This document shows, in pieces, positions 2,193 through 18,344 of a stretch of DNA of 18,344 bases (positions are counted from its first letter, which is position 1; each line of letters starts with the position of its first letter). The notes beneath the pieces are model-generated. The model was not told the DNA's origin and made no database searches. It was given only the letters and a program-made list of their open reading frames with translations. The position numbers and the translations under genes were made by a program. The DNA comes from an uncultured Nitrososphaerota archaeon (GTDB taxonomy: Archaea; Asgardarchaeota; Njordarchaeia; Njordarchaeales; Panguiarchaeaceae): positions 26,625-44,968 of the forward strand of contig CAZWPQ010000016.1 in NCBI GenBank assembly GCA_964636085.1, given 5' to 3'.

Positions 2193-2216
2193 ATGTAGAA
2201 CCCAACCTATCCAACA

Positions 2217-2230
2217 CTATAAAAACCTTG
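2217..2230 (-). promoter_or_regulatory. Putative BRE/TATA promoter of tfb
   Basis: Minus strand reads CAAGGTTTTTATAG. The TATA-like element lies about 25-33 nt upstream of the ATG at 2192, typical archaeal spacing. Confidence 0.5.
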
Positions 2231-2317
2231 AACCTATAATATTCCTAATTGAGAAAATTTAAAGAAAAAATAAAGAAGTGTATAGTTACGCTATTAATTG
2301 TATATTTACCCTATTAT

Positions 2318-2336
2318 AAAAAACAGAAAAGGAAAA
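2318..2336 (-). terminator. Oligo-T terminator after the aminotransferase
   Basis: Minus strand TTTTCCTTTTCTGTTTTTT directly follows the stop codon; archaeal intrinsic terminators are U-rich tracts. Confidence 0.5.
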
Positions 2337-2337
2337 C

Positions 2338-3651
2338 CTATCCAATATGTTTCGACAATAGCATCCCCAATCTTCTAATACCCTCTTCAATGTCCGCTGG
2401 TTTTAGCAAAGAGTATGAAAGCCTCATCGTGTTTAAATGATATTTAATTTTCTCGATTGACCCAGTATCTGGGTTATAAATCCATCCCAACTGCTCTACA
2501 GGATAAAAAGCGACGCCAGGTACATAATTTACATCATTTTTCAGCGCTACTTCCTCTAAAAATGTGGGGGCATTGAACTCTCCCTCACTTTCATACCATA
2601 CAAAGAACCCTCCCTGCGGTTTCGTGTGGATACCAGGCGGAAAATATTTTTCGATGCTTTCAATCATCGCATTTCTTCTCCTCATATACTCCCCAACAGC
2701 TTCAGGAAGTACGCGGTCTATCCATTTCTCGTAGTACTCTTTCAGCAACACTTGATTGATTACGGGTGTACATAGATCTTGATAGCCCTTCGATTTTATG
2801 AACTCATCAACAATAGTTTTGGGTATTACACCATATCCAACACGAAATACTGCTGCTTCCTTGCTTGATGTACGTAGATAAGCTACATACTCATTTTCTT
2901 TATCCATGGATTTTATCGGAGGGATTTTTTCTCCTCCAAAGTATATATCCCTATACGCAGCATCCTCCACGATCAAAATTTTATATTTGACCGCTATCTC
3001 ATATAATTTCTTTCGTCGAGATAATGGCAATGTTGTTCCCTTAGGATTATCAGAGTCTGCCACAACATAGATGAAATCAGGCGTTTTTCCAAATTTTTCC
3101 ATAGCCTTCTCTATAGCCATATCTACGTATTCAGGAATTATTCCATGCTCATCCGTCGGTACACAGACTATGTTCGCCCTATGCATCCCCAATGGACCAA
3201 GCGCTCCTAGATAAACTGGTGCTGGACAAATAACAACATCCCCGGGATCAATGAGTATATTCGTTAATGTAAATAGGGCCTGTTGACTTCCAGTAAAAAT
3301 GGTTACCGCATTTATCCTCTCATTCTCGTCTTTTGGGAGAGGAACCCCATCTTTTTCGAGCCTATCTGCCAATACTCTTCTTAAGGGATCATATCCAGCT
3401 GTTTTTTCGTAGTTAAATATCTCCAATACCTCCTTCTCCTTTCCATCCTTCACCAACTTGCCAAGCTCTTCGCCAATATCAACAAGTATTCTTGTCAATG
3501 TCTCTAGTGGTAGAACACCAGGTTTGCCTCCAGCAAAGTAGTATCTCACCTTGAACCTTAGAAGTCTTCTAATCTCGCTCTCGGGTATAAGTTTGGTCCA
3601 AGCGGCAAATTTAAAGCCAAATTCATGCACTTCTGTTACGATGCTTGACAT
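2338..3651 (-). CDS. PLP-dependent aminotransferase, fold type I (class I/II; aromatic/2-aminoadipate aminotransferase-like)
   Basis: Motifs SEIRRLL, AGGKPG, TGSQQAL, DNPKG, EDAAY, TSSK (PLP lysine), RVGY, PQGGFFVW, VPGxAFY, MRLSYS. ATG at 3651 is preferred over TTG at 3672 because a TTTTTAAG TATA-like element sits about 30 nt upstream of it. Confidence 0.9.
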   Translation of the reverse strand: MSSIVTEVHEFGFKFAAWTKLIPESEIRRLLRFKVRYYFAGGKPGVLPLETLTRILVDIGEELGKLVKDGKEKEVLEIFNYEKTAGYDPLRRVLADRLEKDGVPLPKDENERINAVTIFTGSQQALFTLTNILIDPGDVVICPAPVYLGALGPLGMHRANIVCVPTDEHGIIPEYVDMAIEKAMEKFGKTPDFIYVVADSDNPKGTTLPLSRRKKLYEIAVKYKILIVEDAAYRDIYFGGEKIPPIKSMDKENEYVAYLRTSSKEAAVFRVGYGVIPKTIVDEFIKSKGYQDLCTPVINQVLLKEYYEKWIDRVLPEAVGEYMRRRNAMIESIEKYFPPGIHTKPQGGFFVWYESEGEFNAPTFLEEVALKNDVNYVPGVAFYPVEQLGWIYNPDTGSIEKIKYHLNTMRLSYSLLKPADIEEGIRRLGMLLSKHIG

Positions 3652-3701
3652 ATTTCCCTTCAATATCCCCAAAAAACTACTTAAAAATGTATCGCTATAT
3701 A

Positions 3702-4508
3702 CTATTTTGTGACACGTGCAATATTAATTCCTTCCAAGTGAGAGAGAAATTCAATAATGCTCGGAAGACTTGGCGCGGAGAGGATACCATGGCAATCAAC
3801 CAAGAGACCGTTTTCGAGACGTATTCTTACAAGAGGGCCAAATATTGATAAGGATCTAGACATTGTGTCGAGTCGAAACATTATCCCATATAAACCATTT
3901 ATGACATCACTCCCCCTAACCTCTATTTCATCCACTCCTACAACCCCCGTAATTTGCGGGTTTAGCATAAAGACGGCACTTGTAACCTTTGTCTTTAGTG
4001 TCTTCATCAATATATTAAATTTATATGGGGCAATAGTATATTCAGAAAAAAGCACTAGATCACCAGATTTTTTTGTTATCTTCCTTAATTTCTCCATTAG
4101 ATCTCGATTTGCAAGTAAGTATCGGTACTGTCGTAGCTTTACTATAACTCCTTCAGGAAACTTTCCACTGGGCCGAATTTCCATACCAGTTACGTAGTAT
4201 ATGTAATCAACAGGCTTGTTAGATATCCTATTAAATAATTTTGTAAAGTTTACGCATTCAAGTTTTTGATTCTTTAATACCCCTCTTAGACTCCTAAAAC
4301 TAGTCTTACAACCGTATAGCTGCCAATTTTCTATGCCTACTTTAAAAAATCTATGGACAAACATCAAAGCTTTCTTTATCCTCTTGTACCTAATTTTTCT
4401 GCGGATAGCCTCGTGGGGGTTTTTGGAGCCTCTTATGTTCAGGATTTCCTCGACAATCGCCAGTGCTTCCTTCTTAGATAAGTCTCTTAGTAATTCTGAG
4501 AGGCCCAC
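3702..4508 (-). CDS. Hypothetical basic protein (268 aa); possible CENP-N/L- or RdgC-like (TBP-like) fold
   Basis: Long ORF filling the gap between two genes, with a GTG start preceded by GTGA. K/R-rich, with a helical N-terminus followed by an alpha/beta pattern. The fold assignment is speculative. Confidence 0.75.
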   Translation of the reverse strand: MGLSELLRDLSKKEALAIVEEILNIRGSKNPHEAIRRKIRYKRIKKALMFVHRFFKVGIENWQLYGCKTSFRSLRGVLKNQKLECVNFTKLFNRISNKPVDYIYYVTGMEIRPSGKFPEGVIVKLRQYRYLLANRDLMEKLRKITKKSGDLVLFSEYTIAPYKFNILMKTLKTKVTSAVFMLNPQITGVVGVDEIEVRGSDVINGLYGIMFRLDTMSRSLSIFGPLVRIRLENGLLVDCHGILSAPSLPSIIEFLSHLEGINIARVTK

Positions 4509-4669
4509 AACTCATCACTTTAAACTCAATAAATAATCTAAAATTATTCGGTTTAAAAAGTGTTGGGAGAGCTTGTGGACATATCAAACTAGGGATCAAT
4601 AATTATGCGAATCTAATTAAAATGCTAATTTGTCTATATATATGTTTAGGTCTATCGGTGATTTTTTAG

Positions 4670-5062
4670 GTGATAGACCGCATTTATGTATTTACGGGTG
4701 GTGGATTATTATCTATAGTGCAGATAAAAAACAATGAAGCAAGAGTCCTAACAAATTGGCCCGAAGAGGTCTCCCTTAGTGCAATGAGCGTCGTAGCCTA
4801 TATGTTAAAGGAATATCAAGAAACAAAAAATAGGGTAGTCATACACAAGGATTGGATAGCATATATACCCGAGGAATCAAACTTTATTCCTATGGTGAAG
4901 ATTAGTAATAAGCGTTACCTCCTAGCCACCATAGGGTTCATCAGAAGATTATCACTTAAGCTGAAAGATCTACCTGAGGAATGCAGAACTGTTGCCGAGG
5001 CCATAATAAGTATCTACGAGAAACATTTCAAACAAAAAATCTCTAAGATAATAATGATTTAG
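4670..5062 (+). CDS. Small hypothetical protein, possibly longin-like
   Basis: GTG start 8 nt after a GGTGA RBS; 130 aa. N-terminus MIDRIYVFTGGGLL resembles the longin beta1-G-beta2 start. The stop overlaps the udg stop by 4 nt. Confidence 0.65.
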   Translation: MIDRIYVFTGGGLLSIVQIKNNEARVLTNWPEEVSLSAMSVVAYMLKEYQETKNRVVIHKDWIAYIPEESNFIPMVKISNKRYLLATIGFIRRLSLKLKDLPEECRTVAEAIISIYEKHFKQKISKIIMI

Positions 5063-5685
5063 AAGAAAGAATCCAGCGTGATTTTTTCTTCACCTAAATT
5101 AAGCAGTTGTTTGATTTTTTTGAAATCATCCATTAAAAATTTCTTCCAAGGAGGCCTATATAGGGCGGCAGCAGGGTGTATCGTTACTAGAACTTTAATG
5201 TTTTTACCATGAGCAACTAGGTTAAACACTTTACCCCTGACACTCAAAATGCTCTTTAAACCAAAACCCACCCTTGATAATATGTACCTTGCGGAATGTC
5301 TACCCAAGCATACAATTATGTCAGGCTGTATGATGGAAATCTGGCGATCCAAATAAGGACTACATGTGCTTATTTCATCTGGCTTGGGATCTCTATTATT
5401 GGGTGGTCTACATTTTACAACATTGGTTATATACACATCTTTCCTTTGCATGCAGAGTATGTCCTCTATTAGTGATGTTAGTAGTTTTCCAGCAGCACCA
5501 ACAAAAGGTTTACCCTGTAGATCCTCTTGATAACCAGGAGCCTCGCCAATAAACATGATCTTGGCGTCAGGAGTTCCTTCTCCAGGAACAGCATTTCTTC
5601 TGTTTCTCCAAAGCGGGCATTTCTTGCAATTTAGGATTTCTCTCTCGACTTCTTGTAGGGCGCGGAGTTTGTCATCTATTTCCAT
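5059..5685 (-). CDS. udg: Uracil-DNA glycosylase family 4 ([4Fe-4S])
   Basis: Motifs CKKCPL, GEAPG, PFVGAAG, NVVKCRPPNNRDP, C..YL and HPAAALY. GGTGA RBS upstream; C-terminal KITLDSFF. Confidence 0.96.
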   Translation of the reverse strand: MEIDDKLRALQEVEREILNCKKCPLWRNRRNAVPGEGTPDAKIMFIGEAPGYQEDLQGKPFVGAAGKLLTSLIEDILCMQRKDVYITNVVKCRPPNNRDPKPDEISTCSPYLDRQISIIQPDIIVCLGRHSARYILSRVGFGLKSILSVRGKVFNLVAHGKNIKVLVTIHPAAALYRPPWKKFLMDDFKKIKQLLNLGEEKITLDSFF

Positions 5686-5770
5686 TTAATCACCGTCAAA
5701 AAAAGAAAAAAGTTAAATAGATTCAAAGAACTATAATAATATAGGAACATATTGAATAAATTGAATAAAA

Positions 5771-6127
5771 ATGCCTAAGAGGAAGCGTGAATTTTGGTAT
5801 ATAAGTGAGATAAGACCCACATCTGGAAGGGTCGACATAGTAGTAACCGTAATTCGGGTACAGTCGCTGAAAAAATTCTTTAAGGGAGATGAGATACATA
5901 GGGTAGCAGAGGTACTTGTTGGGGACCGGACCGGCATAATAGTACTTGTAGTATGGGACGATCTTATTGACAAAATTCGGGAAAGAGAGACATATGTGAT
6001 AAGGAACCTGAGGCCTAAGATATACAAGAATAGGATGAGGGTCGTATGTACCAGGGATAGTACAATTGAGGAGGCCCCATATAGGATCCCAATCAAAGAA
6101 ATAAACGTAGCCCCAAAAATCAGATAG
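5771..6127 (+). CDS. Single-OB-fold single-stranded DNA-binding protein (crenarchaeal SSB/RPA-like)
   Basis: ISEIRP...VDIVVTV...VAEVLVGDRTGxIxLVVWD...IRN...YK...STIEEA aligns by eye with the Sulfolobus-type SSB OB fold (GDETG/LxxW). Confidence 0.82.
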   Translation: MPKRKREFWYISEIRPTSGRVDIVVTVIRVQSLKKFFKGDEIHRVAEVLVGDRTGIIVLVVWDDLIDKIRERETYVIRNLRPKIYKNRMRVVCTRDSTIEEAPYRIPIKEINVAPKIR

Positions 6128-6188
6128 CTATTTCTATAAATTTTTAGTATATTTAGGATAAGCAAGGTCATCCTGTGTGTGGCTAAAA

Positions 6189-6872
6189 ATGCATCATAGA
6201 ATCAACCTACCAATTCTTCAAGTTGCATTAGATATGACGGATATCGACACAGCTGTAAGGATAGCTAGGGAGGCTCTTGGTGGTGGAGCTGATTGGATAG
6301 AGTGTGGCACCCCTCTGATAAAGGCGATTGGTATTGGGGCGATCAAGGCTTTGAGGAAGGAGTTTCCGGATGTGGTAATAGTTGCAGATATGAAGACAAT
6401 GGACGCCGGAGCACTTGAGGCTGAGATGGCTTTTAGTAGTGGGGCTAATATAGTCACGGTCTTGGGATTAGCCAGCATAGAAACAATTAGTAATGTTGTA
6501 AAAGTAGCGAAAAAGAATGACGGTCTAGTTATGGTTGATATGATAAATCATCCTGATCCGATCAATAGAGCAACAGAGTTAAGAGAATACAACATTGATG
6601 CCGACATAATCTTACTGCATGTAGGGATAGATCAGCAATGTATGAGTATTAGTCATCTCGAAATTATACCCAGTCTAAAGGAAAAATGGGGGTACCTTGT
6701 CGCGGTTGCTGGGGGCCTGAATCCACAATCATCGAGCTCCGCAATAGAGTTGGGTGCCGACATAGTAATAGTTGGTAGATATATAACACTATCTAGTAAT
6801 GTAAAGCAGAAAGCGAGAGAAGTTAAGAGTGCTATAGCCAAGGCGTGGAAGGAATCGAGAGCCCACAAATAA
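6189..6872 (+). CDS. hxlA: 3-hexulose-6-phosphate synthase (OMPDC/HUMPS family, stand-alone)
   Basis: Motifs LQVALD, WIECGTPLIKAIG, VADMKTMDAGALE, HVGIDQQ, AVAGGL, IVGRYIT. HVGIDQQ favours HPS over KGPDC/OMPDC. Start is ATG 6189 or GTG 6177. Confidence 0.85.
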   Translation: MHHRINLPILQVALDMTDIDTAVRIAREALGGGADWIECGTPLIKAIGIGAIKALRKEFPDVVIVADMKTMDAGALEAEMAFSSGANIVTVLGLASIETISNVVKVAKKNDGLVMVDMINHPDPINRATELREYNIDADIILLHVGIDQQCMSISHLEIIPSLKEKWGYLVAVAGGLNPQSSSSAIELGADIVIVGRYITLSSNVKQKAREVKSAIAKAWKESRAHK

Positions 6873-6884
6873 ATAAAAAAGATT

Positions 6885-7541
6885 TTATTCCTCTATGCCC
6901 AAGCTTAATATTCTTTTTATCAAAATTTTGACGGTAGGGACGCCAACTGTGAATACTTTTCCATTGTAATTACCATTAACACTAAGTATTATCGTTGGTA
7001 CGGCATTAACACCATATTTTTCAGCGATCTCAGGGAACTCATAGGCATCTACTACATCACTGATAACTTTTCCCTTGGATGCAACAGCAATTCTGTGGGC
7101 CTCTAATGCCGCATGAGGGCACCAAGGGCAACTAGGCGTAACGATGGTTTCTATCTTAACCTTTTTATCCAGAGAGGCTAGATCTGCCTCATACTCTTTT
7201 AGACCGTGTTGTCTATTTGACGCGAGTGTTATTCCTTCAAGAAATGCCCAAGCTTCCTCGCCGATAGGGGCTCCAGTATATCTAATCTCCCCATGTTTTC
7301 CGATGAGAATTACTGGTCCTCTATCAACACCAAGGATCTCCATATGTATTCTCTGCAATTGTTGTTTTTCTACTCTGAGCTTTTGATCGCTTATCCCCGA
7401 GATGTCCTCCAGTAATTGCTCTACAGTATCACAGAGTTTGCAGTCCTCTGAAGCAAAGTAGAGTATAGGGATCGCGTCGACAAGCCTACTCATATATTTT
7501 TCTCTAATATATTTGAGCTCGTCTTCTCCAAGTACTCCCAT
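6885..7541 (-). CDS. Protein disulfide oxidoreductase (archaeal PDO, AhpF-NTD-like, two thioredoxin folds)
   Basis: Two CxxC sites (CKLC and CPWC); IRYTGAPxGxE..FLE; A.EFPEIAEKYGVNAVP. Start at 7541 (MGVLGEDE) has a GGTG RBS; the ORF track starts at 7559. Confidence 0.9.
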   Translation of the reverse strand: MGVLGEDELKYIREKYMSRLVDAIPILYFASEDCKLCDTVEQLLEDISGISDQKLRVEKQQLQRIHMEILGVDRGPVILIGKHGEIRYTGAPIGEEAWAFLEGITLASNRQHGLKEYEADLASLDKKVKIETIVTPSCPWCPHAALEAHRIAVASKGKVISDVVDAYEFPEIAEKYGVNAVPTIILSVNGNYNGKVFTVGVPTVKILIKRILSLGIEE

Positions 7542-7606
7542 ATACGACACCAGCATCATAGTAACTTTTGATTAAACATATTTAAATGGTCAAGTTTTTA
7601 TGGCTT

Positions 7607-8818
7607 TTAGAAGCCACTATAGTCGCCAAGATAGATATTTGAGTTAACTATATATATTGGATTCTTCATATTGGGCACGAGTGAAAATATGTCGGTCAGG
7701 GTTATCCTAGGTGCCTCAATATTATGATGCCAGATCCATGCAATAGATTTAAGAAGATCAGTTTCGCATATCCCCCTGTCCTCACGTCTAGAAAGGTGTT
7801 GTTTAAGCTCGAGTATTATACTGGAAATTTTTGGCGAAAATCGCCATAGGGCATATCTTTTGTATATATCGTAGCCAATAGTGCTATGGTATTTTTTATG
7901 TGTAATCCTTATGAGCTCCTCAACAAGTCCTGGATCGTGGGTGTCCTTCAAAGTTTTATTCAATTCTATTATTGTCCTATATGGACACAGAGAACATGAT
8001 ATGCGTGAGCATCCTTGGAGATAATGCGGATGTACTAGATCGATTTTTTTACATATGTTTACTATATCGAGAATTGTCAGTGGGAATATGGGCTTGAATT
8101 GGTTGCCAGATATAAACATGAATTGCTTTGCGTATTCCCTGAGGGATCTAAACCTCTTAAAACTCTCAAAAATTCTTTCAGCACTTATTTCAAAATCACA
8201 ATTTAGATTTCTCTTGATTTTTCTCATAACCTTTATCTTTGCATTATATGTACACCACCTATATCCCCTGTAAGGTAAGCCTCTTTCCATTAACAGTCTA
8301 TACATATAATTCTTGCCAATGGAGGCTCTTATTATATCTATAGAGAATTTCCTTTCGACAAAATCTATGAATTTAGAGTTTTCCTCTCCATCAAGGAATG
8401 GGACATGTATATAACCAACAAACAATTTAAAATTAATGAGCTCTTGGAGTCTAAGGATTATATATAATGCACTAGTAGAATCTTTGCCTCCAGAGTACCA
8501 CAGAACTAGCCTTTTGTCCTTTAATTTGGAACCTACTATTTCGGCGAGAGTGTATATATAGTGGTCCACATCAGAAATAATGCGCCCAAATATTGATGGT
8601 GCAGCATCTATTAGAGTAGAGTATCTGATCTTATTGAAAAGAAACCCAGAATGCTCATTGGCTCTAAAATCTGATAGAAATTTAGCAATATGCTCTATCA
8701 TGAAATATACTTTTATTCCCCTATTGTTAAAAATTGCTATTGAATCCATTCCAAGGCTAATAAAACATTTAGAATCAAGCAAAAATGTAGGGATCCATTC
8801 CCCTATCGGAAGCACCAT
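7607..8818 (-). CDS. PAPS-reductase-family (COG0175) PP-loop protein, function uncertain
   Basis: PP-loop YSGGKDS, GLP..xxRWCT..K, ERxxESxxR, KPI, HPxYxxGxxRxSCxxCP. No C-terminal ECGLH motif. ATG lies 1 nt after the metG stop. Confidence 0.85.
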   Translation of the reverse strand: MVLPIGEWIPTFLLDSKCFISLGMDSIAIFNNRGIKVYFMIEHIAKFLSDFRANEHSGFLFNKIRYSTLIDAAPSIFGRIISDVDHYIYTLAEIVGSKLKDKRLVLWYSGGKDSTSALYIILRLQELINFKLFVGYIHVPFLDGEENSKFIDFVERKFSIDIIRASIGKNYMYRLLMERGLPYRGYRWCTYNAKIKVMRKIKRNLNCDFEISAERIFESFKRFRSLREYAKQFMFISGNQFKPIFPLTILDIVNICKKIDLVHPHYLQGCSRISCSLCPYRTIIELNKTLKDTHDPGLVEELIRITHKKYHSTIGYDIYKRYALWRFSPKISSIILELKQHLSRREDRGICETDLLKSIAWIWHHNIEAPRITLTDIFSLVPNMKNPIYIVNSNIYLGDYSGF

Positions 8819-8819
8819 A

Positions 8820-10358
8820 TTAATGGTTTAGTTTTTTAAACAATATTTCCCTCTTCCCGATCTTATGACCATGCTTAAGGTTGCCCCAAACCCGCAAGTT
8901 TATAAGCTTGGGAACAGTATTTAGGCCCATCTGTTCCGCTATTTTTTTAGATGCATCAGGCATAAATGGATATAGCATGGCACACAGGACATATATCCAA
9001 TCTAGGCAATGTCGAATAATAACCGCAACTCTTTCCTTCTCACCGTCTTTCCAGAGCTTCCATGGTTCGGTTCTGTTAAGATATGTATTGATTAATTGGG
9101 CTACAAGAAGTGCCTCCATGACCGCATGATGTATATATAGCCTCCTCATATATTCATGATATTTCTTGAGATGGTCTCCTATTTTTTTGGAGAATTCACT
9201 CTCAATGTTGGTGTGTCCTTGGATCTCAGGCAGGACGCTGCCAAAATACTTCTCTACCAACGTCATTACTCTGAACACCATATTCCCAATCTCATTTACT
9301 AACTCATTATTGTAATATCTAATCAGTTCCTTCTCGGAGAAATTACCGTCTTCCCCAAAGGGAACGGCTCTACATAGATAGTATCTTACCGCATCCCGGC
9401 CATACTTCTTTACCAGATCTATTGGATCTATATCCGTTCCTAAAGACTTACTAATTTTTTTCCCCTCAACAGTTAGGAATCCATGGGCAAAAATTTTCTT
9501 TGGTAATGGCAAACCCGCAGACAGGAGTATGGCAGGCCATATAACAACATGAAACCAAAGGATGTCCTTTCCAATTAATTGTATATCAGGAGGCCAGAAT
9601 TTGTCAAAAATACTCCGATTGTCCAAGTATCCAATACCAGAAACATAGTTTAGAAGGGCATCTAGCCATACATATAGCACATGATTACTATCCCAGGGAC
9701 ATTCTATGCCCCATGGTAGATACCACTTTGGTCTTGTTATTGATACATCCATCAATCCTTCCTCGAGGATCTTCTTTACTATATAATTTTTTCTCTCTTC
9801 TGGCTGTATGAAGTCTTTTTCTTCATACAAGTTAAGTAGAGCGTCCTTGTATTTGCTTAACCTAAAGAAATAGCACTCCATATCTAGGTACTCCACAGGT
9901 TTATGATGTATTGGGCACTTTTTCCCCTCTATTAATTCCTTGCGCGTATAGTATCTCTCACATTCCACACAATATAGGCCCCTATATGTGCCCTTGTATA
10001 TGTCGCCATTCTCATAGATCTTCATCGCTATTTCCCTTACAACCTGCTCGTGGGTTGGCTCAGTAGTCCTAATGAAGCGATCATATCTTATGTTTAATGC
10101 TTTCCAAGCATTCTTGAAATAAGGAATCATCGTATCCACAAACTCCTTTGGCGACATCCCCCTTTCCTTAGCTATTTTATATAGTTTCATTCCATGCTCA
10201 TCTGTCCCTGTGAGATAGAACGTCTCATATCCATTTGATTCGTAATACCTCGCCAATACATCGCCCATTATCGTAGTGTATGCGGATCCTATGTGTGGTG
10301 GTCTATTCGGATAGTATATTGGGGTTGTTATATAGCACTTTCTTGGTTTGTCCGACAT
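8820..10358 (-). CDS. metG: Methionyl-tRNA synthetase, short monomeric bacterial-type
   Basis: YITTPIYYPN, HIGS (HIGH variant), GTDEHG, single Zn knuckle CVEC...CPIH, YVWLDALLNY, IGKDI, KISKS, GN..xR, N.YL..TEPW. No C-terminal OB domain. Confidence 0.97.
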   Translation of the reverse strand: MSDKPRKCYITTPIYYPNRPPHIGSAYTTIMGDVLARYYESNGYETFYLTGTDEHGMKLYKIAKERGMSPKEFVDTMIPYFKNAWKALNIRYDRFIRTTEPTHEQVVREIAMKIYENGDIYKGTYRGLYCVECERYYTRKELIEGKKCPIHHKPVEYLDMECYFFRLSKYKDALLNLYEEKDFIQPEERKNYIVKKILEEGLMDVSITRPKWYLPWGIECPWDSNHVLYVWLDALLNYVSGIGYLDNRSIFDKFWPPDIQLIGKDILWFHVVIWPAILLSAGLPLPKKIFAHGFLTVEGKKISKSLGTDIDPIDLVKKYGRDAVRYYLCRAVPFGEDGNFSEKELIRYYNNELVNEIGNMVFRVMTLVEKYFGSVLPEIQGHTNIESEFSKKIGDHLKKYHEYMRRLYIHHAVMEALLVAQLINTYLNRTEPWKLWKDGEKERVAVIIRHCLDWIYVLCAMLYPFMPDASKKIAEQMGLNTVPKLINLRVWGNLKHGHKIGKREILFKKLNH

Positions 10359-10406
10359 TTTTACTACCAGAATACTTTTGATAATTAATAATTATAAGAT
10401 TTCAGC

Positions 10407-10886
10407 CTACTTCTTACCAAAAAGCCTTCTAAAAGCCGACTTTATCTTATCTATTATGCCTAGTTTCTTCTCCTCTGGTTTTTTATGCTCTACTATCAAC
10501 TCCTCCTCTTCAGGACGCCCAGCCTCCTCAACAGCCCTCCTTACCTCCTCGTCCGTTACTTCAGGCATCTCTTCGGGCACTTTAGACTCTATATCTGCCG
10601 CTCCTACTTCCTTCTCCTGCTTGTATACTTCTATCTTAACCGAGGCCCAATCCACATGTATTGTACCATCCACAATATCAATATTAAACATTATGCGGAC
10701 TACATCCGATTTATCAACATTGTTCTCTCTCAATATCTTGAATAGATGCTGATTCATGTGTGCCGCGACCTTGACGGCGTCCTCCGTTTTTACCCCCCTT
10801 TTCCTTGTAGCTGCTATTAACACCCTCCTAAGCTTATCCGCATATCCCGACGCCCTAACCGGGCCCGTGCTGATACTCAACCGCAT
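10407..10886 (-). CDS. ThermoDBP-related (DUF2258) ssDNA-binding protein with acidic linker and C-terminal amphipathic helix
   Basis: STGPVRASGYADKLRRVL...AAHMNQ.LF...VDKSDVVRI...IEVY matches the DUF2258/ThermoDBP-RP N-terminal domain. GGGGGT RBS upstream. Confidence 0.82.
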   Translation of the reverse strand: MRLSISTGPVRASGYADKLRRVLIAATRKRGVKTEDAVKVAAHMNQHLFKILRENNVDKSDVVRIMFNIDIVDGTIHVDWASVKIEVYKQEKEVGAADIESKVPEEMPEVTDEEVRRAVEEAGRPEEEELIVEHKKPEEKKLGIIDKIKSAFRRLFGKK

Positions 10887-10985
10887 TATGACCCCCAGTG
10901 AAAGATTTTATGATTTTCCGTATATTAATATTATATAAATGAAATATAGAAATTTTAATGGTAGATAATTAGGGTGTTGTAAAAA

Positions 10986-11714
10986 ATGCAGATTGACGAG
11001 GAAATTCCCGAAAGTTTAGAGGAACTAGAGAAAGAAATAGAGGAACTAGAGAAAGCCGAAATTGCCCCCCCACCCGAGGTAGCTAAACGCGGTAGAATAA
11101 GGCCTGAGGTTCCCACCGAAAGAAGATTTCGAGTATCATCCATATTTCTCGGATTTCTCATACTGTTTATCTACTTATTCGCATTAAGCTATATATCTAT
11201 AAGTAATCTCCTAAGTGAACTAGAAATTTCGAGTGTCTCCTCGGGAGAAAAGTTCATGATAGCTGCCCTATTACCGCTCACGGTTTCTCCCTCGTTACCA
11301 AATATAATGTTGCTTATTATAACTGGGGAACTCGAGCTCGCTGTGTTATCGGTGGAATCGTATGAGACTATAATTACATTCCTTTCATTAGTTTTGATAT
11401 ACTCATACTCGCTTTCGTTTAGTTCAGATGTGTATGTCCTACTATTCTTTGTTGGAATATTGCCCTACCTTCTAGCGGGAATCGTTGCTGGGTTATTAAA
11501 CAGGGATCCTGGATATGGCTTTGTGGCTGGCCTAATAATATGGGTATTGCTACTAGCAATATCAAGTACTATCATGTACTTCTTTATGCTTGGAATAACA
11601 GATACAACAGTATCATTCAGCGACATTATTGTGAGCTATATTGGTTCAGGGTATCTATCGGCGATTTTCCTTTGTATATTTGGAGCCCTTGGTGGGGCTT
11701 CGGGAAAAGGTTAA
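10986..11714 (+). CDS. Hypothetical integral membrane protein with acidic N-terminal coiled coil
   Basis: Charged N-terminus (EELEKEIEELEK, then a basic patch) followed by about 5-6 hydrophobic segments with Gly-rich motifs (LAGIVAGL, GALGG). GGGTG RBS. Confidence 0.8.
   Translation: MQIDEEIPESLEELEKEIEELEKAEIAPPPEVAKRGRIRPEVPTERRFRVSSIFLGFLILFIYLFALSYISISNLLSELEISSVSSGEKFMIAALLPLTVSPSLPNIMLLIITGELELAVLSVESYETIITFLSLVLIYSYSLSFSSDVYVLLFFVGILPYLLAGIVAGLLNRDPGYGFVAGLIIWVLLLAISSTIMYFFMLGITDTTVSFSDIIVSYIGSGYLSAIFLCIFGALGGASGKG
11017..11055 (+). repeat. Perfect 18-nt direct repeat with 21-nt period (TAGAGGAACTAGAGAAAG x2)
   Basis: Copies at 11017-11034 and 11038-11055 encode the heptads LEELEKE/IEELEKA. 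Confidence 0.9.
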
Positions 11715-11758
11715 ATATGACCAGCCACTTTGCCTCTACTATTTTCATATCTCTCATA

Positions 11759-12490
11759 TCACTGCTCATCCTCAACTATTTTTCTCAGCTCTTTTAATAG
11801 CGGAATCGCATCCAGCCTATCCATAACTAGTTCCCATAGTATTCCAATAGGCTTAACATACCTTGTATTTGTATATATGACTCTCTTCGGAGTGGCTATT
11901 ATGTCCAAGGGGAAATCGTTTTTCGTCATCGGTATGTTCTCCACAATCTGTATTTCATGTACAGTAGTGGCGGTAATAGTATTCTTATCTACAAGACCAT
12001 AAGTACTCAGTATTCCCCATTCTATATCTGAAAATCCATGACCTTTTCCGAGCCTCCCGCCTCTCATATCTACTGCAACACATCCAGTTACTTTCATGTC
12101 GATATACGGAAGTTTTGTGGGATGCATGTTAATACCATATTTAAATGCACCAGAGATAGTGGACGCCTTTCCTATCGCGTGAGGAGGTATTCTAGACGGA
12201 TCCAGCATTATGAATCCAGATCTTATCCTTGGAGACGCCATTATTAGTTTCTTCCTATCGATGAGGGCCAACCTACGTACATGCTTCTGGGGAGAATCTG
12301 GATTTGCAAAAATTACTGATGATTTCCCCCATTCCTTTGTCCTTCTTAGTTTTAGAGCTGCTTCCTCAGCCCCCACAAAATTGGGTATTCTACCATATAC
12401 TGGTCTCGGGAACCTAGCAATGTTTAATGACTCCATTTTCCTCCATATTTCCTCTCTAATCCTCCGCTTTGCTTCTTTTATGTCTTCCAC
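11759..12490 (-). CDS. 5-formyltetrahydrofolate cyclo-ligase paralog (MTHFSD-type, COG0212)
   Basis: FPRPVYGRIPNFVGA, NPDSPQ, PRIRSGF, GCVAVD..GGRLGKGHGFSDIEW, TTVHEIQ, DFPLDIIATP. The RIPNF and NPDSPQ motifs mark the paralog subfamily. Confidence 0.9.
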   Translation of the reverse strand: MEDIKEAKRRIREEIWRKMESLNIARFPRPVYGRIPNFVGAEEAALKLRRTKEWGKSSVIFANPDSPQKHVRRLALIDRKKLIMASPRIRSGFIMLDPSRIPPHAIGKASTISGAFKYGINMHPTKLPYIDMKVTGCVAVDMRGGRLGKGHGFSDIEWGILSTYGLVDKNTITATTVHEIQIVENIPMTKNDFPLDIIATPKRVIYTNTRYVKPIGILWELVMDRLDAIPLLKELRKIVEDEQ

Positions 12491-12509
12491 TTGGAATCAA
12501 CCAGCATGG

Positions 12510-14234
12510 CTACGTGACAATCATGAATATTATGGGGATAAGGATCCCCAATGTTATGGCCATGTATAATATACTAGTTTTTACAAAGCTTTCGTACTTT
12601 AGAAACCCTCTACCTCTCGCATGTTCTTCTAAAACAACACCATTTGGCCCAAATATTATCGCTGTAGATACCAACGACAAATATATCACAAATCCTATAT
12701 TGACATTCATTGTTGATACCACAAGAGGCAATATTATTGCGATGCTGACCATTGATCCGAGTATACCCGATAAGATTGTTATTATGGGCAGAATCAACAT
12801 TGTGATCTTCATTGGCGATAATCCATGGAGTTCTGAAATAAATACATCTAACAAACCACTATTCTTCATTAATACAGCTAAGGATAGGCTCCCACCAAGT
12901 ATAAGCAGGATATCCCATCGTAGATTTTTGAGGTCATCAACACTAAACACATTAGTGGCTAGTAAGATTAATGCCCCACACATGGATATTGCAGCCACAT
13001 TGTAGTAATATGTCAAACCAATCTTAGATAAGATGGAAGAGACCAACCAAGACACTATAACTATGGTAAGAACAGATATCGTAATTTTTTCCTCACGCGT
13101 CAGTGGACCCATACCCATCAAATGTGCCTCAAATGCCAGAAATGATGCCTGATCAAACTTTATATAGCCATCCTTCACATCCTTCTCCGCATCGAAAAAT
13201 CTTGATAGTATGTAGATGATGACAAACAATACAAATACCGACACGGGCACGGAGTATATCATCCAATCTACGAATTCTATTCTAATTTCCGATGACCTAT
13301 ATACTATCGATGCCGCAAGAGCATTTGCTGGATTACCCACAAGTGTAGACATTCCACCTAATATGGAGGCAAATATAACTGCCAATGTTATGCCTTGGGC
13401 ATACCTAGACTTCTCACTAGCATTGAACGCCTTCAATATCGTGGAGATTATCGGCAACATCAGCAACATTGTGGCTAGGGAACTCATCCACATTGATAGA
13501 ACATATGATATAAACGCCAAGTAAAACATTAATTTCCTTGGAGATTTTGCTTTACTCACCGCAGAATAGGATAGTCTCTTAGCTAGACCACTCTTGTCCA
13601 TCGAGTATGCAATTACGAATGCTCCAAAAACTAGTGCGATGGCTGGATCCCAAAAAACAGAGAATACATCATACGGCGGAATGTTCACTATCAATATTGC
13701 AAGAACTGGGATCAACAAGGCTATAATCAATGGATTAAGCGCCACTGCTGACCATAGAATAATCACTATCAGAAAAATATAGAATGCTAAATCAACATTG
13801 ACCCTTATTGTCTTCGCCAATTTTATTCTATCGCCCTCCTTAATACTATCCATCCACTCTACAGATTTATCCTCGGATATTAACTGTCCATTGATATTAT
13901 CTGGGGATATGTCGACAGGCTTACCATCTATCAGAAGCCTCACATAGGCCCAGAACATGTTGCCGGGTTTTCTAGCGTAACTATCGAGAGCCATTATTTG
14001 TAGCACAAAACCTCCACCCTCATTGCTCGAGTTCTGGATGAGCATCCCGTCGTTGTCACCTAGCTTGGTTTTCACACACACTGATATTTTAGTGATAGTA
14101 TTATCATAGCTAACGGTTACTGTGGCCTTGATTATATAATTCCCCGCCTTATGTTCCTTTGGTGCTACAGCAATTGCCAGATATGTAGCGGAGATACATA
14201 AAATGATCAGGCCGAATAGTTGGTATTTCCTCAT
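12510..14234 (-). CDS. DASS/SLC13-family (anion:Na+ symporter-like) permease with inserted beta-rich domain
   Basis: DPAIALVFGAFVIA..MDKSGLAKR, SMWMSSLAT.LLMLPI, FASILGGMSTLVGNPAN, IEFVDWM, WDILLILGG. About 120 aa of polar beta-rich sequence sits between the first hydrophobic segment and the core. Confidence 0.85.
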   Translation of the reverse strand: MRKYQLFGLIILCISATYLAIAVAPKEHKAGNYIIKATVTVSYDNTITKISVCVKTKLGDNDGMLIQNSSNEGGGFVLQIMALDSYARKPGNMFWAYVRLLIDGKPVDISPDNINGQLISEDKSVEWMDSIKEGDRIKLAKTIRVNVDLAFYIFLIVIILWSAVALNPLIIALLIPVLAILIVNIPPYDVFSVFWDPAIALVFGAFVIAYSMDKSGLAKRLSYSAVSKAKSPRKLMFYLAFISYVLSMWMSSLATMLLMLPIISTILKAFNASEKSRYAQGITLAVIFASILGGMSTLVGNPANALAASIVYRSSEIRIEFVDWMIYSVPVSVFVLFVIIYILSRFFDAEKDVKDGYIKFDQASFLAFEAHLMGMGPLTREEKITISVLTIVIVSWLVSSILSKIGLTYYYNVAAISMCGALILLATNVFSVDDLKNLRWDILLILGGSLSLAVLMKNSGLLDVFISELHGLSPMKITMLILPIITILSGILGSMVSIAIILPLVVSTMNVNIGFVIYLSLVSTAIIFGPNGVVLEEHARGRGFLKYESFVKTSILYMAITLGILIPIIFMIVT

Positions 14235-14246
14235 AAAATAACACCC

Positions 14247-15332
14247 CTAGGATTTTATTCTAGCAATTATGGCTATTACAACAGCCAAAAATAGGAAACC
14301 TAAGACAAAAAACAACAATTTTGGTTGACTATTAGCCCCACTCTCCCCCTCTATATCCAACATAAACTCATAGGTCGCGTCCTTGTAGTTCTCCTTCTTA
14401 ACAATAATCTTAATGCTATGCTCACCACTATCCCTGGGCTCCCATGTGAACTCATATACACCATTATTATCCGTTCTGCCGGCCCCTACGACTTGATCAT
14501 TTATAAGAACCCTTACCTCCGCCATGGATACAGGACTATTATCGTTGTCCACTACCTTTATTATAATAACGATTGATGACCCCACAATCTGTTTCCCCAC
14601 GGTAGAAACCATTATTGATATCTCCTCCTTTGTCACATTTAGTATATCCTTGCATGAGGATCCGAAGTAATACTCATCGCCCTCGAAAATTATGACAAAA
14701 TCATATGTATTAACCCCCAACTCTCCATATGTACCGTCGACTGTAGATATGTTAAAACAGACAATACCATTGTCATCGGTAGTAGCATTCATACATGGCC
14801 CAAGAGACTCATTAATAAAGCAGAAAGTTAACTCCTTTCCTGGAATTCTATGTCCATCATCATCCTCCAATGCCGCATAAATAGTGATCAAGTCGGAATA
14901 TTCAACACTAGGAATATTTAGCAGTCTTATACGCGATATTTCCTTATATACATAGAAATCTGCCTGCGCTTCTGCATAATCATCCCCATATTGCGCAGAT
15001 GCATTCACTCTGTAGCTTCCCGGAGGATACCGAACATCATCAATCCTGAACTGTGCACGGCCATCATTTCCAGTTCTTGAATAACCTATATACTCCTTAT
15101 CTGTACCTCCAATAATCAGATAGAAACTAACATTAACACCCACGATTGCTGTACCATATGCATCCGTCAATCTTACCTCGAAAATTACTGGATCAGAATA
15201 ATTAGTCTCATATACCTTATCGGTAAACTCCAAGCTAATTCCTTGGCGTGGCTTTGGTATGCTGTAGACATGCGTCCCCATCGTTATATGGGATAGTATA
15301 ACCATAAGCAATACTAGATGTACACTCCTCAT
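14247..15332 (-). CDS. Membrane-anchored surface protein with three Ig-like domains
   Basis: N-terminal signal-like segment, three beta-repeats with TxxDG/TDxxG turns, and a C-terminal TM helix LLFFVLGFLFLAVVIAIIA followed by RIK. Confidence 0.85.
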   Translation of the reverse strand: MRSVHLVLLMVILSHITMGTHVYSIPKPRQGISLEFTDKVYETNYSDPVIFEVRLTDAYGTAIVGVNVSFYLIIGGTDKEYIGYSRTGNDGRAQFRIDDVRYPPGSYRVNASAQYGDDYAEAQADFYVYKEISRIRLLNIPSVEYSDLITIYAALEDDDGHRIPGKELTFCFINESLGPCMNATTDDNGIVCFNISTVDGTYGELGVNTYDFVIIFEGDEYYFGSSCKDILNVTKEEISIMVSTVGKQIVGSSIVIIIKVVDNDNSPVSMAEVRVLINDQVVGAGRTDNNGVYEFTWEPRDSGEHSIKIIVKKENYKDATYEFMLDIEGESGANSQPKLLFFVLGFLFLAVVIAIIARIKS

Positions 15333-15364
15333 AAGTATAACCGTATTAACAAAGAAAATTCTAG

Positions 15365-15405
15365 AAAAAACATAAAATGTTTTTTATTCAGTACTGAATA
15401 AAAAA
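15365..15405. repeat. 26-bp perfect palindrome (15380-15405) overlapped by a second inverted repeat (15365-15385)
   Basis: TTTTTTATTCAGTACTGAATAAAAAA is its own reverse complement. AAAAAACAT-aaa-ATGTTTTTT has 9-bp arms and shares the T6 tract. Confidence 0.9.
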
Positions 15406-15410
15406 TAGCA

Positions 15411-18344
15411 CTACTCCGACTCTTCGAGTGGTTCCATCTCAAATTCTTCTGCCTCACCCTCTATTGCCGATTCAATCCCAGCAATCTCCGCTTTCCTCCT
15501 CTTATTCTTGAAAACCACTAACCCAATTATAGATGCTACGCCTAGTAGAGCAAACATGAATATATATGATGGTGCTCTACCACCAACCACACTTCTTTTT
15601 ATACTATATTTCAGAGGGCTATAGTACTGCTTGGTAATAACGATAGTGATGTTATAGTCTCCAGCCTCGTCTGGAATCCACTCGGCACTATATTTGCCAG
15701 TCGCATCGGTCACGCCTTGAGCCGCTATGTCTCCATTTATCATTATTGTGACATTGGCACCCTCCACATATTTCACAGTTTCATCATTCTCGCCGACTAT
15801 TATTTCGATACTCACCTCATCCCCCGCATATATGGTCTCTGGATATATCCTAAGGTCTAGGAGAACGATCCCTTCTGGGATTATCCTTATTGTTGTTGAT
15901 GCTGTTGTTTTGGAATATTTGCCCTCAGAATCAACAAAGTATGCAACGAGTGTATAATTACCCACAGGCAAGTCTCCTGGAATCGTTATCACTGCTTTCC
16001 CATCCCCAGAAGTAATTACTGGCGACAATTCATATGTCCCTCCAGCATATGTAAGATTGGCATATATAGTTTTACCAGCCAATTTCTCTCCATCATCCGT
16101 TTCTAGATACAGACCTATAGCGATAGCATCAGTATATTCAGTGGTATATTCGTTACGGTCAAATCTTATTATTGTTTCCTCTGAAACAACCCTAAGAGTC
16201 GTAGACTTTGATGATGAGACATAGCCTTCTAGTCCCTCACATACAGCAAAAAGCATGTATTCTCCTGGGATTATTTCCGCGATCCAAGTTATATATCCAT
16301 AACCATCGGCATTTGTTACTGCGCTACCTATCGATACATTATTCCCAGAAATCTCCAACAGGAACGTAACATTTATATTACCTACTGGGCGTCCTTCTTC
16401 GTCTAGTACCCTTATATCTATAGTTATCTCGTCCCCATACTCGACTTCATATTCTGCCTGAGTAAACTGTAGATTTAAATACCCTATGACATATTCAACA
16501 CTAAATCTAACTACCGACTTTGCAACATTACCAGCTAAGTCAACTGCCTTAACTATTATGCTATAATTGCCAATGCTTAAGTTTGTGAATGTGTATGACT
16601 TGTTTAGCCCGACATATATCCAATCCCCATCTATAGTGATATAATGACACAGAACTTCAATATTATCATCACTATCCCAAATCACGGTTACAGTATCATT
16701 ATCGATCACAGTGTCGTTTTCTGGATATGATATATATATAGTTGGCGGCGTCACATCTATATAGATAACGAGGAGTTTAATTGCCTCATTCCCCACCATA
16801 TCTACGGCCTTGACTAGTATTGTATGGTTGCCTTCCGTCAGGCTGAGATTATAGTACGTATTGTTGCCAACATTAATCCATGAGCCATTATAGTTTATCT
16901 CATAATGATCTATCCCAGAGAAATCCTCCTTAACATCCCACACCAAATGTATGTCTGTATGATTTATATAGGATTGATTTTCTGGTGCTATTATGTCCAA
17001 AAGTGGGGCCGTAATATCTACATATACAACTAAGAGAATTTTGGCCATATTTCCGGCCTTATCCAGACCCTTTATATAAACCATATACATCCCATCTTCT
17101 CCACAGCTCATATTGTATGATGTAGAAAGCCCAAGGCTTATCCAAACACCATTAACGAATATCTCGAAATGATCTAAGTTTTCATCACTACCTTCCCATT
17201 CTATAAATACATATCGCTGATTATGCCAACTATTATTTTCCGGGCTCAAAAGATTCAGCGTTGGTGCCATCGTATCTATTACTATCCATACAGAATCCTC
17301 ACCAACATTTCCAGCATAATCATACGCCCTAACACATATCGTGTAGTTACCATCCACCAATCCAGATATCTGATAAGAAGTTAGAGCGCCAACATCAATC
17401 CATGAGCCTCCCCAAGATATTTCGTAGTGGTCTATACCATACGAGTCTGTCCCATTCCACATAACCAATACGGAAGACTCATTTATATAGGAGGCCGTCT
17501 TCGGATCCAATATTTGAACAACAGGGGGTGATAGATCAACCACTATACTAACCAATGCTACTGCACTATTACCCGCTCTATCAACAGCCTTTACATATAT
17601 TGTATGGTTACCCTCCTTCACACCAACAAATACATATGAATTATTTGTGCCTACATCTATATAGCCCTCATTATCTATCCTCACATAATACCTATCCAAA
17701 TAATCATCACTACCACTCCACAGTACACTAATGTTGTTACTATTCAGATAATCCCCATCATTGGGCGATAATATGGTTAGTGAGGGAGGCGTCAGGTCCA
17801 CAACCACGGTAACGTTATCGGAAACACTATCCCCAGATATATCGACAGCAAACACACTAATTTTATGCTGGCCCTCTGAAAGACTAGTAATATTATATGT
17901 GGTAACATCACTAGGAATGCTCTGATTTACAGGAGTATCATCCACATATATCTCGAAATGATCTATATCACCACTAGAATTCCAGACAACACGTACCCAA
18001 GAAACATTGAAGAACAATCCATCAGGAGGAGAGAGAATGCAAACACTCATAGATATTACATATACACTTATATCATCACTACCCCTATTGCCTGCCCCAT
18101 CAAAGGCAACAACACAAACATTATACCACTTACCCCCCTCCAGACCACTAAAATCATGATGATCAGTCAAATTGACACCAGCAACATAAACAGCCTGCAA
18201 ACTACCATTAAGATAAACCTTGACACTACCAATAGACGAACCATCATCACTAGCATTCCAGAAAACAGTAAAGGCGGTACCAACACTAGCACCATCCTTA
18301 GGACTCGAAATAGTGACTGTCGGCGGAGAGGTATCAACAGTGAA
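15411..18344 (-). CDS. Giant Ig/FN3-like repeat cell-surface glycoprotein (5'-truncated by window edge)
   Basis: Frame is open to the window end (FTVDTSPPTVTISSPKDG... upstream of 18200). Seven ~86-95-aa repeats DxxPP..I.SP..W...D..DHYEI...G.HTI.VKAVD.AGN, then three Ig-like domains, a TM helix, KNKRRK and an acidic tail. Many N-x-S/T sequons. Confidence 0.9.
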   Translation of the reverse strand, partial: FTVDTSPPTVTISSPKDGASVGTAFTVFWNASDDGSSIGSVKVYLNGSLQAVYVAGVNLTDHHDFSGLEGGKWYNVCVVAFDGAGNRGSDDISVYVISMSVCILSPPDGLFFNVSWVRVVWNSSGDIDHFEIYVDDTPVNQSIPSDVTTYNITSLSEGQHKISVFAVDISGDSVSDNVTVVVDLTPPSLTILSPNDGDYLNSNNISVLWSGSDDYLDRYYVRIDNEGYIDVGTNNSYVFVGVKEGNHTIYVKAVDRAGNSAVALVSIVVDLSPPVVQILDPKTASYINESSVLVMWNGTDSYGIDHYEISWGGSWIDVGALTSYQISGLVDGNYTICVRAYDYAGNVGEDSVWIVIDTMAPTLNLLSPENNSWHNQRYVFIEWEGSDENLDHFEIFVNGVWISLGLSTSYNMSCGEDGMYMVYIKGLDKAGNMAKILLVVYVDITAPLLDIIAPENQSYINHTDIHLVWDVKEDFSGIDHYEINYNGSWINVGNNTYYNLSLTEGNHTILVKAVDMVGNEAIKLLVIYIDVTPPTIYISYPENDTVIDNDTVTVIWDSDDNIEVLCHYITIDGDWIYVGLNKSYTFTNLSIGNYSIIVKAVDLAGNVAKSVVRFSVEYVIGYLNLQFTQAEYEVEYGDEITIDIRVLDEEGRPVGNINVTFLLEISGNNVSIGSAVTNADGYGYITWIAEIIPGEYMLFAVCEGLEGYVSSSKSTTLRVVSEETIIRFDRNEYTTEYTDAIAIGLYLETDDGEKLAGKTIYANLTYAGGTYELSPVITSGDGKAVITIPGDLPVGNYTLVAYFVDSEGKYSKTTASTTIRIIPEGIVLLDLRIYPETIYAGDEVSIEIIVGENDETVKYVEGANVTIMINGDIAAQGVTDATGKYSAEWIPDEAGDYNITIVITKQYYSPLKYSIKRSVVGGRAPSYIFMFALLGVASIIGLVVFKNKRRKAEIAGIESAIEGEAEEFEMEPLEESE

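Follow-up and report, generated by a model that had tools for sequence, protein, structure and literature searches.

What does a short, basic, amphipathic helix do at the very end of a protein whose only recognizable domain belongs to a family of single-stranded nucleic-acid binders? The question is raised by an open reading frame (ORF) on the reverse strand of the DNA analysed here, a stretch of 18,344 nt (hereafter the window) from an uncultured thermophilic Asgard archaeon of the Njordarchaeales. Its product is a ThermoDBP-related (ThermoDBP-RP) protein with an acidic linker and a basic tail, and by analogy with known membrane-targeting sequences we tentatively read it, at a little short of an even chance, as a peripheral tether that holds a single-stranded nucleic-acid-binding domain at the membrane. 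What is new is the conserved, tail-bearing ThermoDBP-RP architecture; the family and the principle of tethering by an amphipathic helix were both known already. The parts of the gene are listed below in window coordinates, with the evidence for each in brackets; AF2 denotes the AlphaFold2 model and pLDDT its predicted local distance difference test score.

10407..10886, minus strand: whole ORF, tail-bearing ThermoDBP-RP variant (P0001), 159 amino acids plus stop
10617..10886, minus strand: ThermoDBP-RP/DUF2258 domain, predicted to bind nucleic acid, residues 1-90 (Pfam, PDB matches, AF2)
10461..10616, minus strand: acidic, proline-containing linker, residues 91-142, mostly disordered by prediction (AF2 pLDDT, charge, alignments)
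10521..10553, minus strand: short conserved acidic helix within the linker, residues 112-122 (AF2 helix; type E-V-T-E-E-E-V-x-A-A-L-E-E)
10419..10460, minus strand: basic amphipathic terminal helix, candidate membrane-targeting sequence, residues 143-156, GIIDKIKSAFRRLF (hydrophobic moment, AF2, conservation)
10410-10418, minus strand: GKK following the terminal helix

Residues 5-76 match the Pfam family PF10015 (ThermoDBP-RP_arch, formerly DUF2258) at 63.9 bits against a gathering cut-off of 25 (E 1.5e-17), covering positions 1-77 of the 78 in the profile, and a phmmer search of the PDB returns the two solved relatives, pfuThermoDBP-RP1 (4psl, E 2.2e-18) and apeThermoDBP-RP2 (4psn, E 6.3e-16). 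The AF2 model, for which a 40-sequence family alignment was the input, gives residues 1-90 pLDDT values of 96-98, with strands at 2-6, 62-72 and 75-88 and helices at 12-28 and 34-54. Foldseek ranks 4psl first (E 7.9e-9), then 4psm, 4pso (E 2.2e-8) and 4psn, and after these 3tek, ThermoDBP itself (E 8.7e-3). Predicted secondary structure and structural matches thus both assign to this domain the fold of its solved relatives, a beta-sheet packed on helices alpha1 and alpha2.

The nature of the ligand is less straightforward. In the phmmer alignment the ssDNA (single-stranded DNA) contacts K17, R20 and K63 of apeThermoDBP-RP2 correspond to K18, R21 and K59 here, of which K18 and K59 are invariant across the family, so by alignment the domain appears to keep the basic helix-alpha1 and loop residues that touch ssDNA in that protein. 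The aromatic residue on which DNA stacks in RP2, F23, is Ile24 in the entire tail clade. pfuThermoDBP-RP1 binds nucleic acid weakly in vitro, maybe being autoinhibited by the C-terminal tail of the adjacent subunit (PMC4041433), and Sulfolobus RP1 has been associated, in an old and unconfirmed report cited in PMC4041433, with box C/D small RNA (sRNA) and the 30S subunit. Given the weak in vitro binding of RP1-type proteins, their one-time link to box C/D sRNA and 30S, and the Ile in place of F23 here, the assumption of the preliminary description of this DNA that the ligand is ssDNA is not secure, and the candidate cargo is ssDNA or RNA.

Beyond the folded domain the character of the chain changes twice, the net charge being +6 for residues 1-90, -11 for residues 91-140 and +6 for the C-terminal block. 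Residues 90-139 contain 19 Asp or Glu, 4 Pro and 7 Lys or Arg, and AF2 models the linker at pLDDT 48-63, with residues 89-111 and 123-144 non-helical and mostly near 50. Between these two lies the acidic helix 112-122; in and just before it, E109, E113, E114 and A118 change little or not at all in the ortholog alignment. Linker length varies from ~50 to ~90 residues across orthologs, and the tail is always at the extreme C-terminus.

The 14-mer 143-156 has a hydrophobic moment of 0.73 (Fauchere-Pliska scale), the highest of any such segment in the protein. AF2 places a terminal helix at residues 145-156 (pLDDT 65-69), on one face of which Ile144, Ile145, Ile148, Ala151, Phe152, Leu155 and Phe156 would lie, with Lys and Arg at the edges of this hydrophobic face and Asp146, Ser150 and Gly157 on the opposite side. 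The last 18 residues have a net charge of +5, and seven Lys or Arg fall within the last 19. In these properties the tail fits the sequence criteria of MinD/FtsA-type targeting sequences, which are terminal, 8-15 residues long, preceded by a flexible linker, high in moment and positively charged.

The pattern G-phi-phi-x-[KR]-phi-x-x-x-phi-[KR]-x-phi-F closes all nine full-length orthologs and one fragment, proteins of the tail type being 46-68% identical overall. In every full-length ortholog the tail is the most amphipathic segment, its moment lying at 0.65-0.83 and its net charge between +3 and +7, and the HeliQuest-type discriminant (D = 0.944 x moment + 0.33 x charge) is 1.5-2.7 for the tails of all orthologs. 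Conservation is physicochemical and not positional: only G143, F156 and two basic positions are fixed or nearly so, hydrophobic sites interchange I, L, F and V, and at positions 149 and 151, the two edges of the hydrophobic face, basic and hydrophobic residues are swapped (Lys for Ile) between two sub-variants. Because hydrophobic sites interchange and edge positions trade Lys for Ile, this pattern of variation, as read from the alignment, is more what one would expect of lipid binding than of a specific protein interface.

Seven basic residues at the end of a flexible leash could also serve as an extra nucleic-acid-binding arm that boosts the affinity of a monomeric N-terminal domain. We consider this very improbable, as the invariant Phe and the continuous Ile/Leu/Phe face would be purposeless in a purely electrostatic arm, the adjoining leash of charge -11 would oppose nucleic-acid binding, and known basic arms are not Gly-capped amphipathic helices.

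The combination of tail and linker is rare in the genome itself. Of its 2882 ORFs of at least 100 amino acids, 37 have a C-terminal segment of comparable amphipathicity and basic character, most of the others being probably packed helices of folded domains; over the preceding 40 residues the tail ORF has 20 Glu, Asp or Pro and the next-highest of the 37 has 13, so that it is the only ORF in the genome with such a tail and a comparably acidic linker. Two short protein-binding motifs were compared with the tail by eye and rejected: the PCNA-binding PIP box (Q-x-x-[ILM]-x-x-[FY]-[FY]), as the tail lacks both the Gln and a pair of adjacent aromatic residues in register, and the ESCRT-III MIM1-like helix ([DE]xxLxxRLxxL[KR]), the register of which does not fit. 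The preliminary description, which had placed the ORF at 10407-10886 with its last 20 residues at 10410-10469, had proposed just this architecture, in which a flexible acidic linker joins a DUF2258 domain to a basic amphipathic helix at the C-terminus; its outline is borne out in each part, the HMMER check of the domain is positive, and the survey of homolog C-termini shows the tail to be conserved in close homologs (9/9 full-length).

How does this C-terminus compare with those of the rest of the family? A HMMER scan of 1.84 billion cluster representatives yielded 95 family members, two matches of ~4000 amino acids (P0055, P0059) in the representative search having been set aside as repeat or low-complexity sequence. 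Their C-termini are of four kinds: an RP1-like kind of ~150 amino acids with a long heptad helix; an RP2-like kind of 210-290 amino acids, many with the domain PF20754; a third kind, T3, of ~176-190 amino acids ending in ..IRIKY.G....EF..EILG or in ..GDWLRKILGWKE; and the basic-tail kind, which among the 95 representatives is limited to one clade, a genus-level group of Njordarchaeales (the database records of the clade are labelled Candidatus Njordarchaeota and, in one case, 'Crenarchaeota archaeon'). T3 proteins consist of the PF10015 domain and a ~90-residue C-terminal part that matches no Pfam family.

Both solved relatives need their C-terminal parts to form stable oligomers (PMC4041433). 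The window protein has neither of the known elements: beyond residue 88 AF2 finds only the helices 112-122 and 145-156, in a Glu/Pro-rich region, where RP1 has its long helix alpha3, and there is no Pfam match besides PF10015, hence no PF20754 cradle domain, in a protein of 159 amino acids as against the 210-290 of RP2. Judged from the model and profile searches, the known oligomerization elements have thus been lost.

All five genomes of the window's genus have one tail-type gene and one T3 gene each, the T3 paralog in the window's own genome lying at L002:1465-2022 (genome G000, contig C21). Further T3 genes are at L025, L026, L029, L030, L033 and L036-L040, and a search of 14 genomes of the order found the type in 12. 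Other genomes of the order with matches (66-91% complete) have RP1-type and/or T3-type genes, and no tail type was found in them. In a tree of the N-terminal domain (96 columns, quick search) the tail clade forms one group with 97 in the Shimodaira-Hasegawa-like approximate likelihood-ratio test (SH-aLRT) and is sister to T3 (SH-aLRT 98), nested among RP1-like sequences. It is a reasonable inference from these sequences that the tail type derives from a T3-like paralog by loss of a beta-rich segment and reversal of the charge of the last helix. The earlier proposal that the oligomerization region had been replaced is therefore right in its outcome, the long C-terminal helix of RP1 being absent, and too simple as history, because the nearest relatives are of the T3 type and not canonical RP1. 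The same description had not recognized the architecture as a published one, and in the papers searched on DUF2258/ThermoDBP we likewise found no description of a membrane-tail variant or of the T3 form.

If the protein is a membrane tether, the following picture can be drawn. The terminal helix would lie flat in the cytoplasmic face of an anionic membrane, with Ile, Leu and Phe in the membrane interface and Lys and Arg snorkelling at the edges, as in the targeting sequences of MinD, FtsA and RNase E. Both membrane and nucleic acid would repel the acidic leash, which would keep the binding domain off the surface. Confinement on the two-dimensional membrane, possibly beside the membrane protein encoded next door, would replace the oligomerization module and raise local avidity. 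In apeThermoDBP-RP2, ssDNA is held between N-terminal domains juxtaposed in the tetramer (PMC4041433), and because the high affinity of RP2 stems from that juxtaposition, confinement to the membrane would restore avidity.

Several points weigh against this picture. The case for membrane binding is one of physicochemical resemblance only, and AF2 confidence in the tail is moderate (pLDDT 65-69). Shuffled 18-mers match the observed moment in 466 of 10,000 trials, and ~1.3% of ORF ends in the genome are similarly amphipathic and basic; a single tail is thus marginal against shuffles, so that the case for the tail being real is carried by its conservation. On the side of the cargo, the aromatic F23 of RP2 has given way to Ile24, RP1-type relatives are poor binders of nucleic acid in vitro (PMC4041433), and deletion of the Saccharolobus homolog gave no phenotype. 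Finally, the tail has two possible partners other than lipid: an invariant acidic helix on the neighbouring membrane protein (described below) offers a protein partner of complementary charge, and pairing in cis could occur with the acidic helix in the linker of the same chain.

Pairing in cis is one form of a wider alternative, in which the protein is soluble and the tail is an interaction or regulatory helix, whether homo-oligomerizing in place of the RP1 bundle, autoinhibitory in cis by folding back on the acidic linker helix or on the N-terminal domain, or a tip that docks on a soluble partner as that of SSB does. There is precedent in pfuThermoDBP-RP1, where the C-terminal tail of the adjacent subunit covers the putative DNA-binding face, and in the domain-linker-tip logic of bacterial SSB; the +6/-11/+6 tri-block and the conserved acidic helix 112-122 would suit such pairing, and the tail is in register with the terminal helix of T3 (G..K...F..IL-G), which is presumably packed on a folded domain there. 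The T3 helix, however, is acidic to neutral (-5 to +2), and its charge is reversed throughout the tail clade, which suggests that the target is new and anionic. With a net charge of +3 to +7 the tail is ill suited to homo-oligomers, the conservation is physicochemical and not residue-specific, and the AF2 model appears to show no confident packing of the tail. We therefore think a soluble role unlikely.

The tether reading must also be set against the gene's surroundings, which are the following.

10887..10985, no strand: divergent intergenic region of 99 bp between the tail gene and the membrane-protein gene
10986..11714, plus strand: 242-residue polytopic membrane protein (P0119) of an unnamed family (AF2; synteny in 5/5 genomes)
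11007..11063, plus strand: invariant acidic heptad helix, PESLEELEKEIEELEKAEI, residues 8-26 of the membrane protein (homolog alignment, AF2)
8820..10358, minus strand: metG, methionyl-tRNA synthetase (MetRS), 512 amino acids (Pfam tRNA-synt_1g, E 6.8e-104; synteny)
10359-10406: gap of 48 nt from the stop codon of the tail gene to the ATG of metG (sequence read)

In all five genomes the tail gene lies between metG and the divergent membrane-protein gene, and the outer flanks are of three kinds. The 99-bp intergenic region, read by eye, has AT-rich TATA-like boxes facing both ways and a GGGGGT Shine-Dalgarno-like motif 5-10 nt upstream of the tail gene's ATG at 10886.

The membrane protein is predicted to have six transmembrane segments arranged as a helical membrane bundle (AF2 pLDDT 85, predicted template-modelling score 0.76). 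It has no Pfam match above threshold (DUF5518 is below it, E 0.011) and no Foldseek match in the PDB at E <= 0.001, and a wider structural search gave as its best result a Z of 5.4 with MprF, which is within noise for helical bundles. Relatives in the ESM Atlas fall in unnamed Asgard clusters (Thor/Promethearchaeota), and the conserved motifs are PYLLAG..AG..NRDPGYGF.AG..IW and IFGALGGA. The protein is about as rare as its neighbour, each having about 9-10 homologs among 5.8 billion proteins.

At its N-terminus, which by the positive-inside rule is probably cytoplasmic, the membrane protein bears an invariant acidic heptad, EELEKEIEELEK, on a disordered stalk. AF2 gives a helix at residues 9-23 and then a disordered stretch of ~27 residues (about 27-50; pLDDT 31-36). 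The helix comprises two E-coil-like heptads with a net charge of -7, and E12, E13, L14, E15, K16, E17, E19, E20, L21, E22 and E25 are invariant among 10 homologs of 40-55% identity. In the predicted models, then, the neighbour mirrors the tail protein, with a helix, a disordered linker and a membrane domain. A genome-wide search of the window's genome found the tail motif and the acidic helix in no proteins besides this pair. The preliminary account lacked this conserved divergent neighbour, whose invariant acidic helix makes a protein-mediated route to the membrane possible for the tail protein.

The acidic helix also occurs elsewhere. Sister-family homologs of the membrane protein (27% identity) retain a shorter helix, SLEDLEKEL-EVE; their genes are flanked by one for a probable glycosyltransferase and one for an acyl-CoA dehydrogenase, both named by eye, and no tail-type gene was found in the genomes that carry them. 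A common origin of acidic helix and tail was considered and rejected, as distant homologs of the neighbour keep the helix without a tail-type partner. In another genome (G002, contig C48; L019:379-1665, minus strand) a 428-residue single-pass membrane protein with DUF5122 beta-propeller repeats carries at its N-terminus the acidic helix of the neighbour together with the PP motif (EELEMEIERLEKAEIVPPEE), with a weak echo at L058 (G001). Its presence on an unrelated DUF5122 protein marks the helix as a portable cytoplasmic module in this lineage.

Might the tail, then, pair with the neighbour's acidic helix as a K-coil does with an E-coil, parking the nucleic-acid-binding domain at the membrane protein? 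The arrangement invites the idea. The membrane-protein gene is adjacent and divergent in 5/5 genomes despite three kinds of outer flank; the two proteins are about equally rare and of mirrored design; the two near-perfect E-coil-like heptads, xLEELEK-EIEELEK, are invariant where the homologs are elsewhere only 40-55% identical; the hydrophobic residues of the tail follow a 3-4-3 spacing (I145, I148, F152, L155), and its charge is the opposite one; and the acidic helix would be on the cytoplasmic side. There are counterweights. The acidic helix predates the tail, the sister family keeping it without a ThermoDBP neighbour, and a second, unrelated membrane protein bears it in one genome. In partners specific for each other one would not expect an invariant helix opposite a variable tail, two heptads are few for a coiled coil that is to be stable, above all in a thermophile, and the g and e positions of the tail are basic only in part. 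The synteny may be inherited, because all five genomes are kin. We judge docking unlikely; it may act jointly with weak lipid contact.

The two ideas can be combined into a two-part device of a kind not seen before, in which an E-coil on the stalk of the membrane protein captures the ThermoDBP domain through a K-coil tail that also touches lipid. This fuller scheme is more doubtful. Were it true, an Asgard archaeon would hold a binder of single-stranded nucleic acid, co-expressed with MetRS, at one particular place on its membrane, and possible roles would be import or export of nucleic acid through the partner, or localization of RNA or translation at the membrane.

On the other side of the tail gene, metG follows downstream on the same strand. 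The distance, 48 nt in the window, is ~37-48 nt in four of the genomes and ~175 nt in the fifth. The 48-nt gap contains no run of five T's, and an AT-rich TATA-like stretch lies ~35 nt before the metG ATG; it is compatible with co-transcription or with a separate promoter. Since the Pfam matches of MetRS reach residue 511 of 512, the enzyme is without an appended C-terminal tRNA-binding domain. The linkage to metG keeps open a role related to RNA or translation, and together with the old report on Sulfolobus RP1 it keeps an RNA ligand alive.

Farther off, at 4670-5062 on the plus strand, lies a small ORF that had earlier been called longin-like and has no Pfam match. It has homologs at L004, L005, L023 and L024; in two of the five genomes the homolog adjoins the membrane-protein gene on the side away from the tail gene, and in the window 6 kb separate the ORF from that gene. 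An Rfam scan of the whole window (1-18344) gave no family at or above its gathering score.

ThermoDBP-related proteins are widespread in thermophilic archaea, and apart from ssDNA binding by RP2 their cellular role has been elusive. The exchange of an oligomerization module for a membrane-type anchor is a testable idea of where such a protein acts and how its avidity arises. It would add a nucleic-acid-binding case to the few Asgard amphipathic-helix anchors that have been studied, in a group whose membrane biology bears on eukaryogenesis. The architecture is clean and conserved, and its mirror-image neighbour came as a surprise; only a handful of uncultured genomes carry the variant, its function is deduced by analogy, and the tether principle is a familiar one.

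Comparison with better-known systems is informative here, beginning with the family itself. pfuThermoDBP-RP1 (Pyrococcus furiosus; 4psl/4psm) is the best PDB match by sequence and by Foldseek, and shares with the window protein the N-terminal fold, a length of ~150 amino acids and the GYADK-RRVL helix alpha1. Its C-terminal helix alpha3 tetramerizes by forming an antiparallel bundle of four helices (Ghalei et al. 2014, PMC4041433). Where RP1 has this long helix and a permanent tetramer, the window protein has an acidic linker, an 11-residue helix and a basic terminal helix of 12-14 residues, and the N-domain tree places the tail clade beside T3 and not beside RP1. apeThermoDBP-RP2 (Aeropyrum pernix; 4psn/4pso), the source of the only ssDNA complex in the family, is similar in the N-terminal domain (E 6.3e-16; Foldseek template-modelling score 0.57 over 129 columns) and, by alignment, in the DNA contacts K17, R20 and K63, kept as K18, R21 and K59. 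It differs in that F23 is Ile24 in the window protein, which is also without the PF20754 domain and the connecting helix, so a tunnel-forming tetramer of the RP2 style cannot form in the same way. T3, the sister clade, co-occurs in the same genomes and shares the linker helix (D/E)EE(V/I)xxA(L/V), and its terminal helix falls into register with the tail when the two are aligned (G, K, F, I/L, L/F, G). Unlike the tail type, it has an extra beta-rich segment of ~50 amino acids (..IRIKY.G..) and a terminal helix of charge -5 to +2 that is not basic, and its gene lies beside neither the membrane-protein gene nor metG.

Outside the family, the targeting sequences of MinD and FtsA provide the analogy for the tail: like it they are terminal, of 10-15 residues, with an Ile/Leu/Phe face flanked by Lys and Arg, a Gly cap and a flexible linker before them. 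In length the tail is nearer the longer type of Bacillus subtilis MinD, a helix that can act in single copy (PMC8155659), and among Asgard archaea the terminal amphipathic helices of OdinFtsZ1 and OdinSepF bind liposomes (PMC12583498). The resemblance to MinD is limited to the tail. By Pfam the window protein has no deviant Walker A ATPase domain and no homology to MinD or FtsA; being without a Walker-type ATPase, it would have no nucleotide switch on its membrane affinity. No true MinD was found in the window's genome above the TIGR01969 cut-off.

Two bacterial proteins come closer in function. In Escherichia coli RNase E, by function the closest analogy, a nucleic-acid-handling domain is tethered to the membrane's inner face by an amphipathic helix within a disordered region, and membrane binding is strengthened by the avidity of the oligomer (PMC12594526, which cites Khemici et al. 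2008 for the membrane-targeting sequence). As a tetrameric bacterial enzyme with an internal helix, RNase E differs from the window protein, which is small, archaeal and non-catalytic and has its helix at the end. Bacterial SSB, with its OB fold, disordered linker and C-terminal tip, follows the same logic of domain, leash and tip, and a membrane-proximal storage pool of E. coli SSB (discussed in PMC7584906) gives precedent for an ssDNA binder near the membrane; its fold is unrelated, its tip is acidic and binds protein, and it associates with the membrane by means other than a dedicated amphipathic helix.

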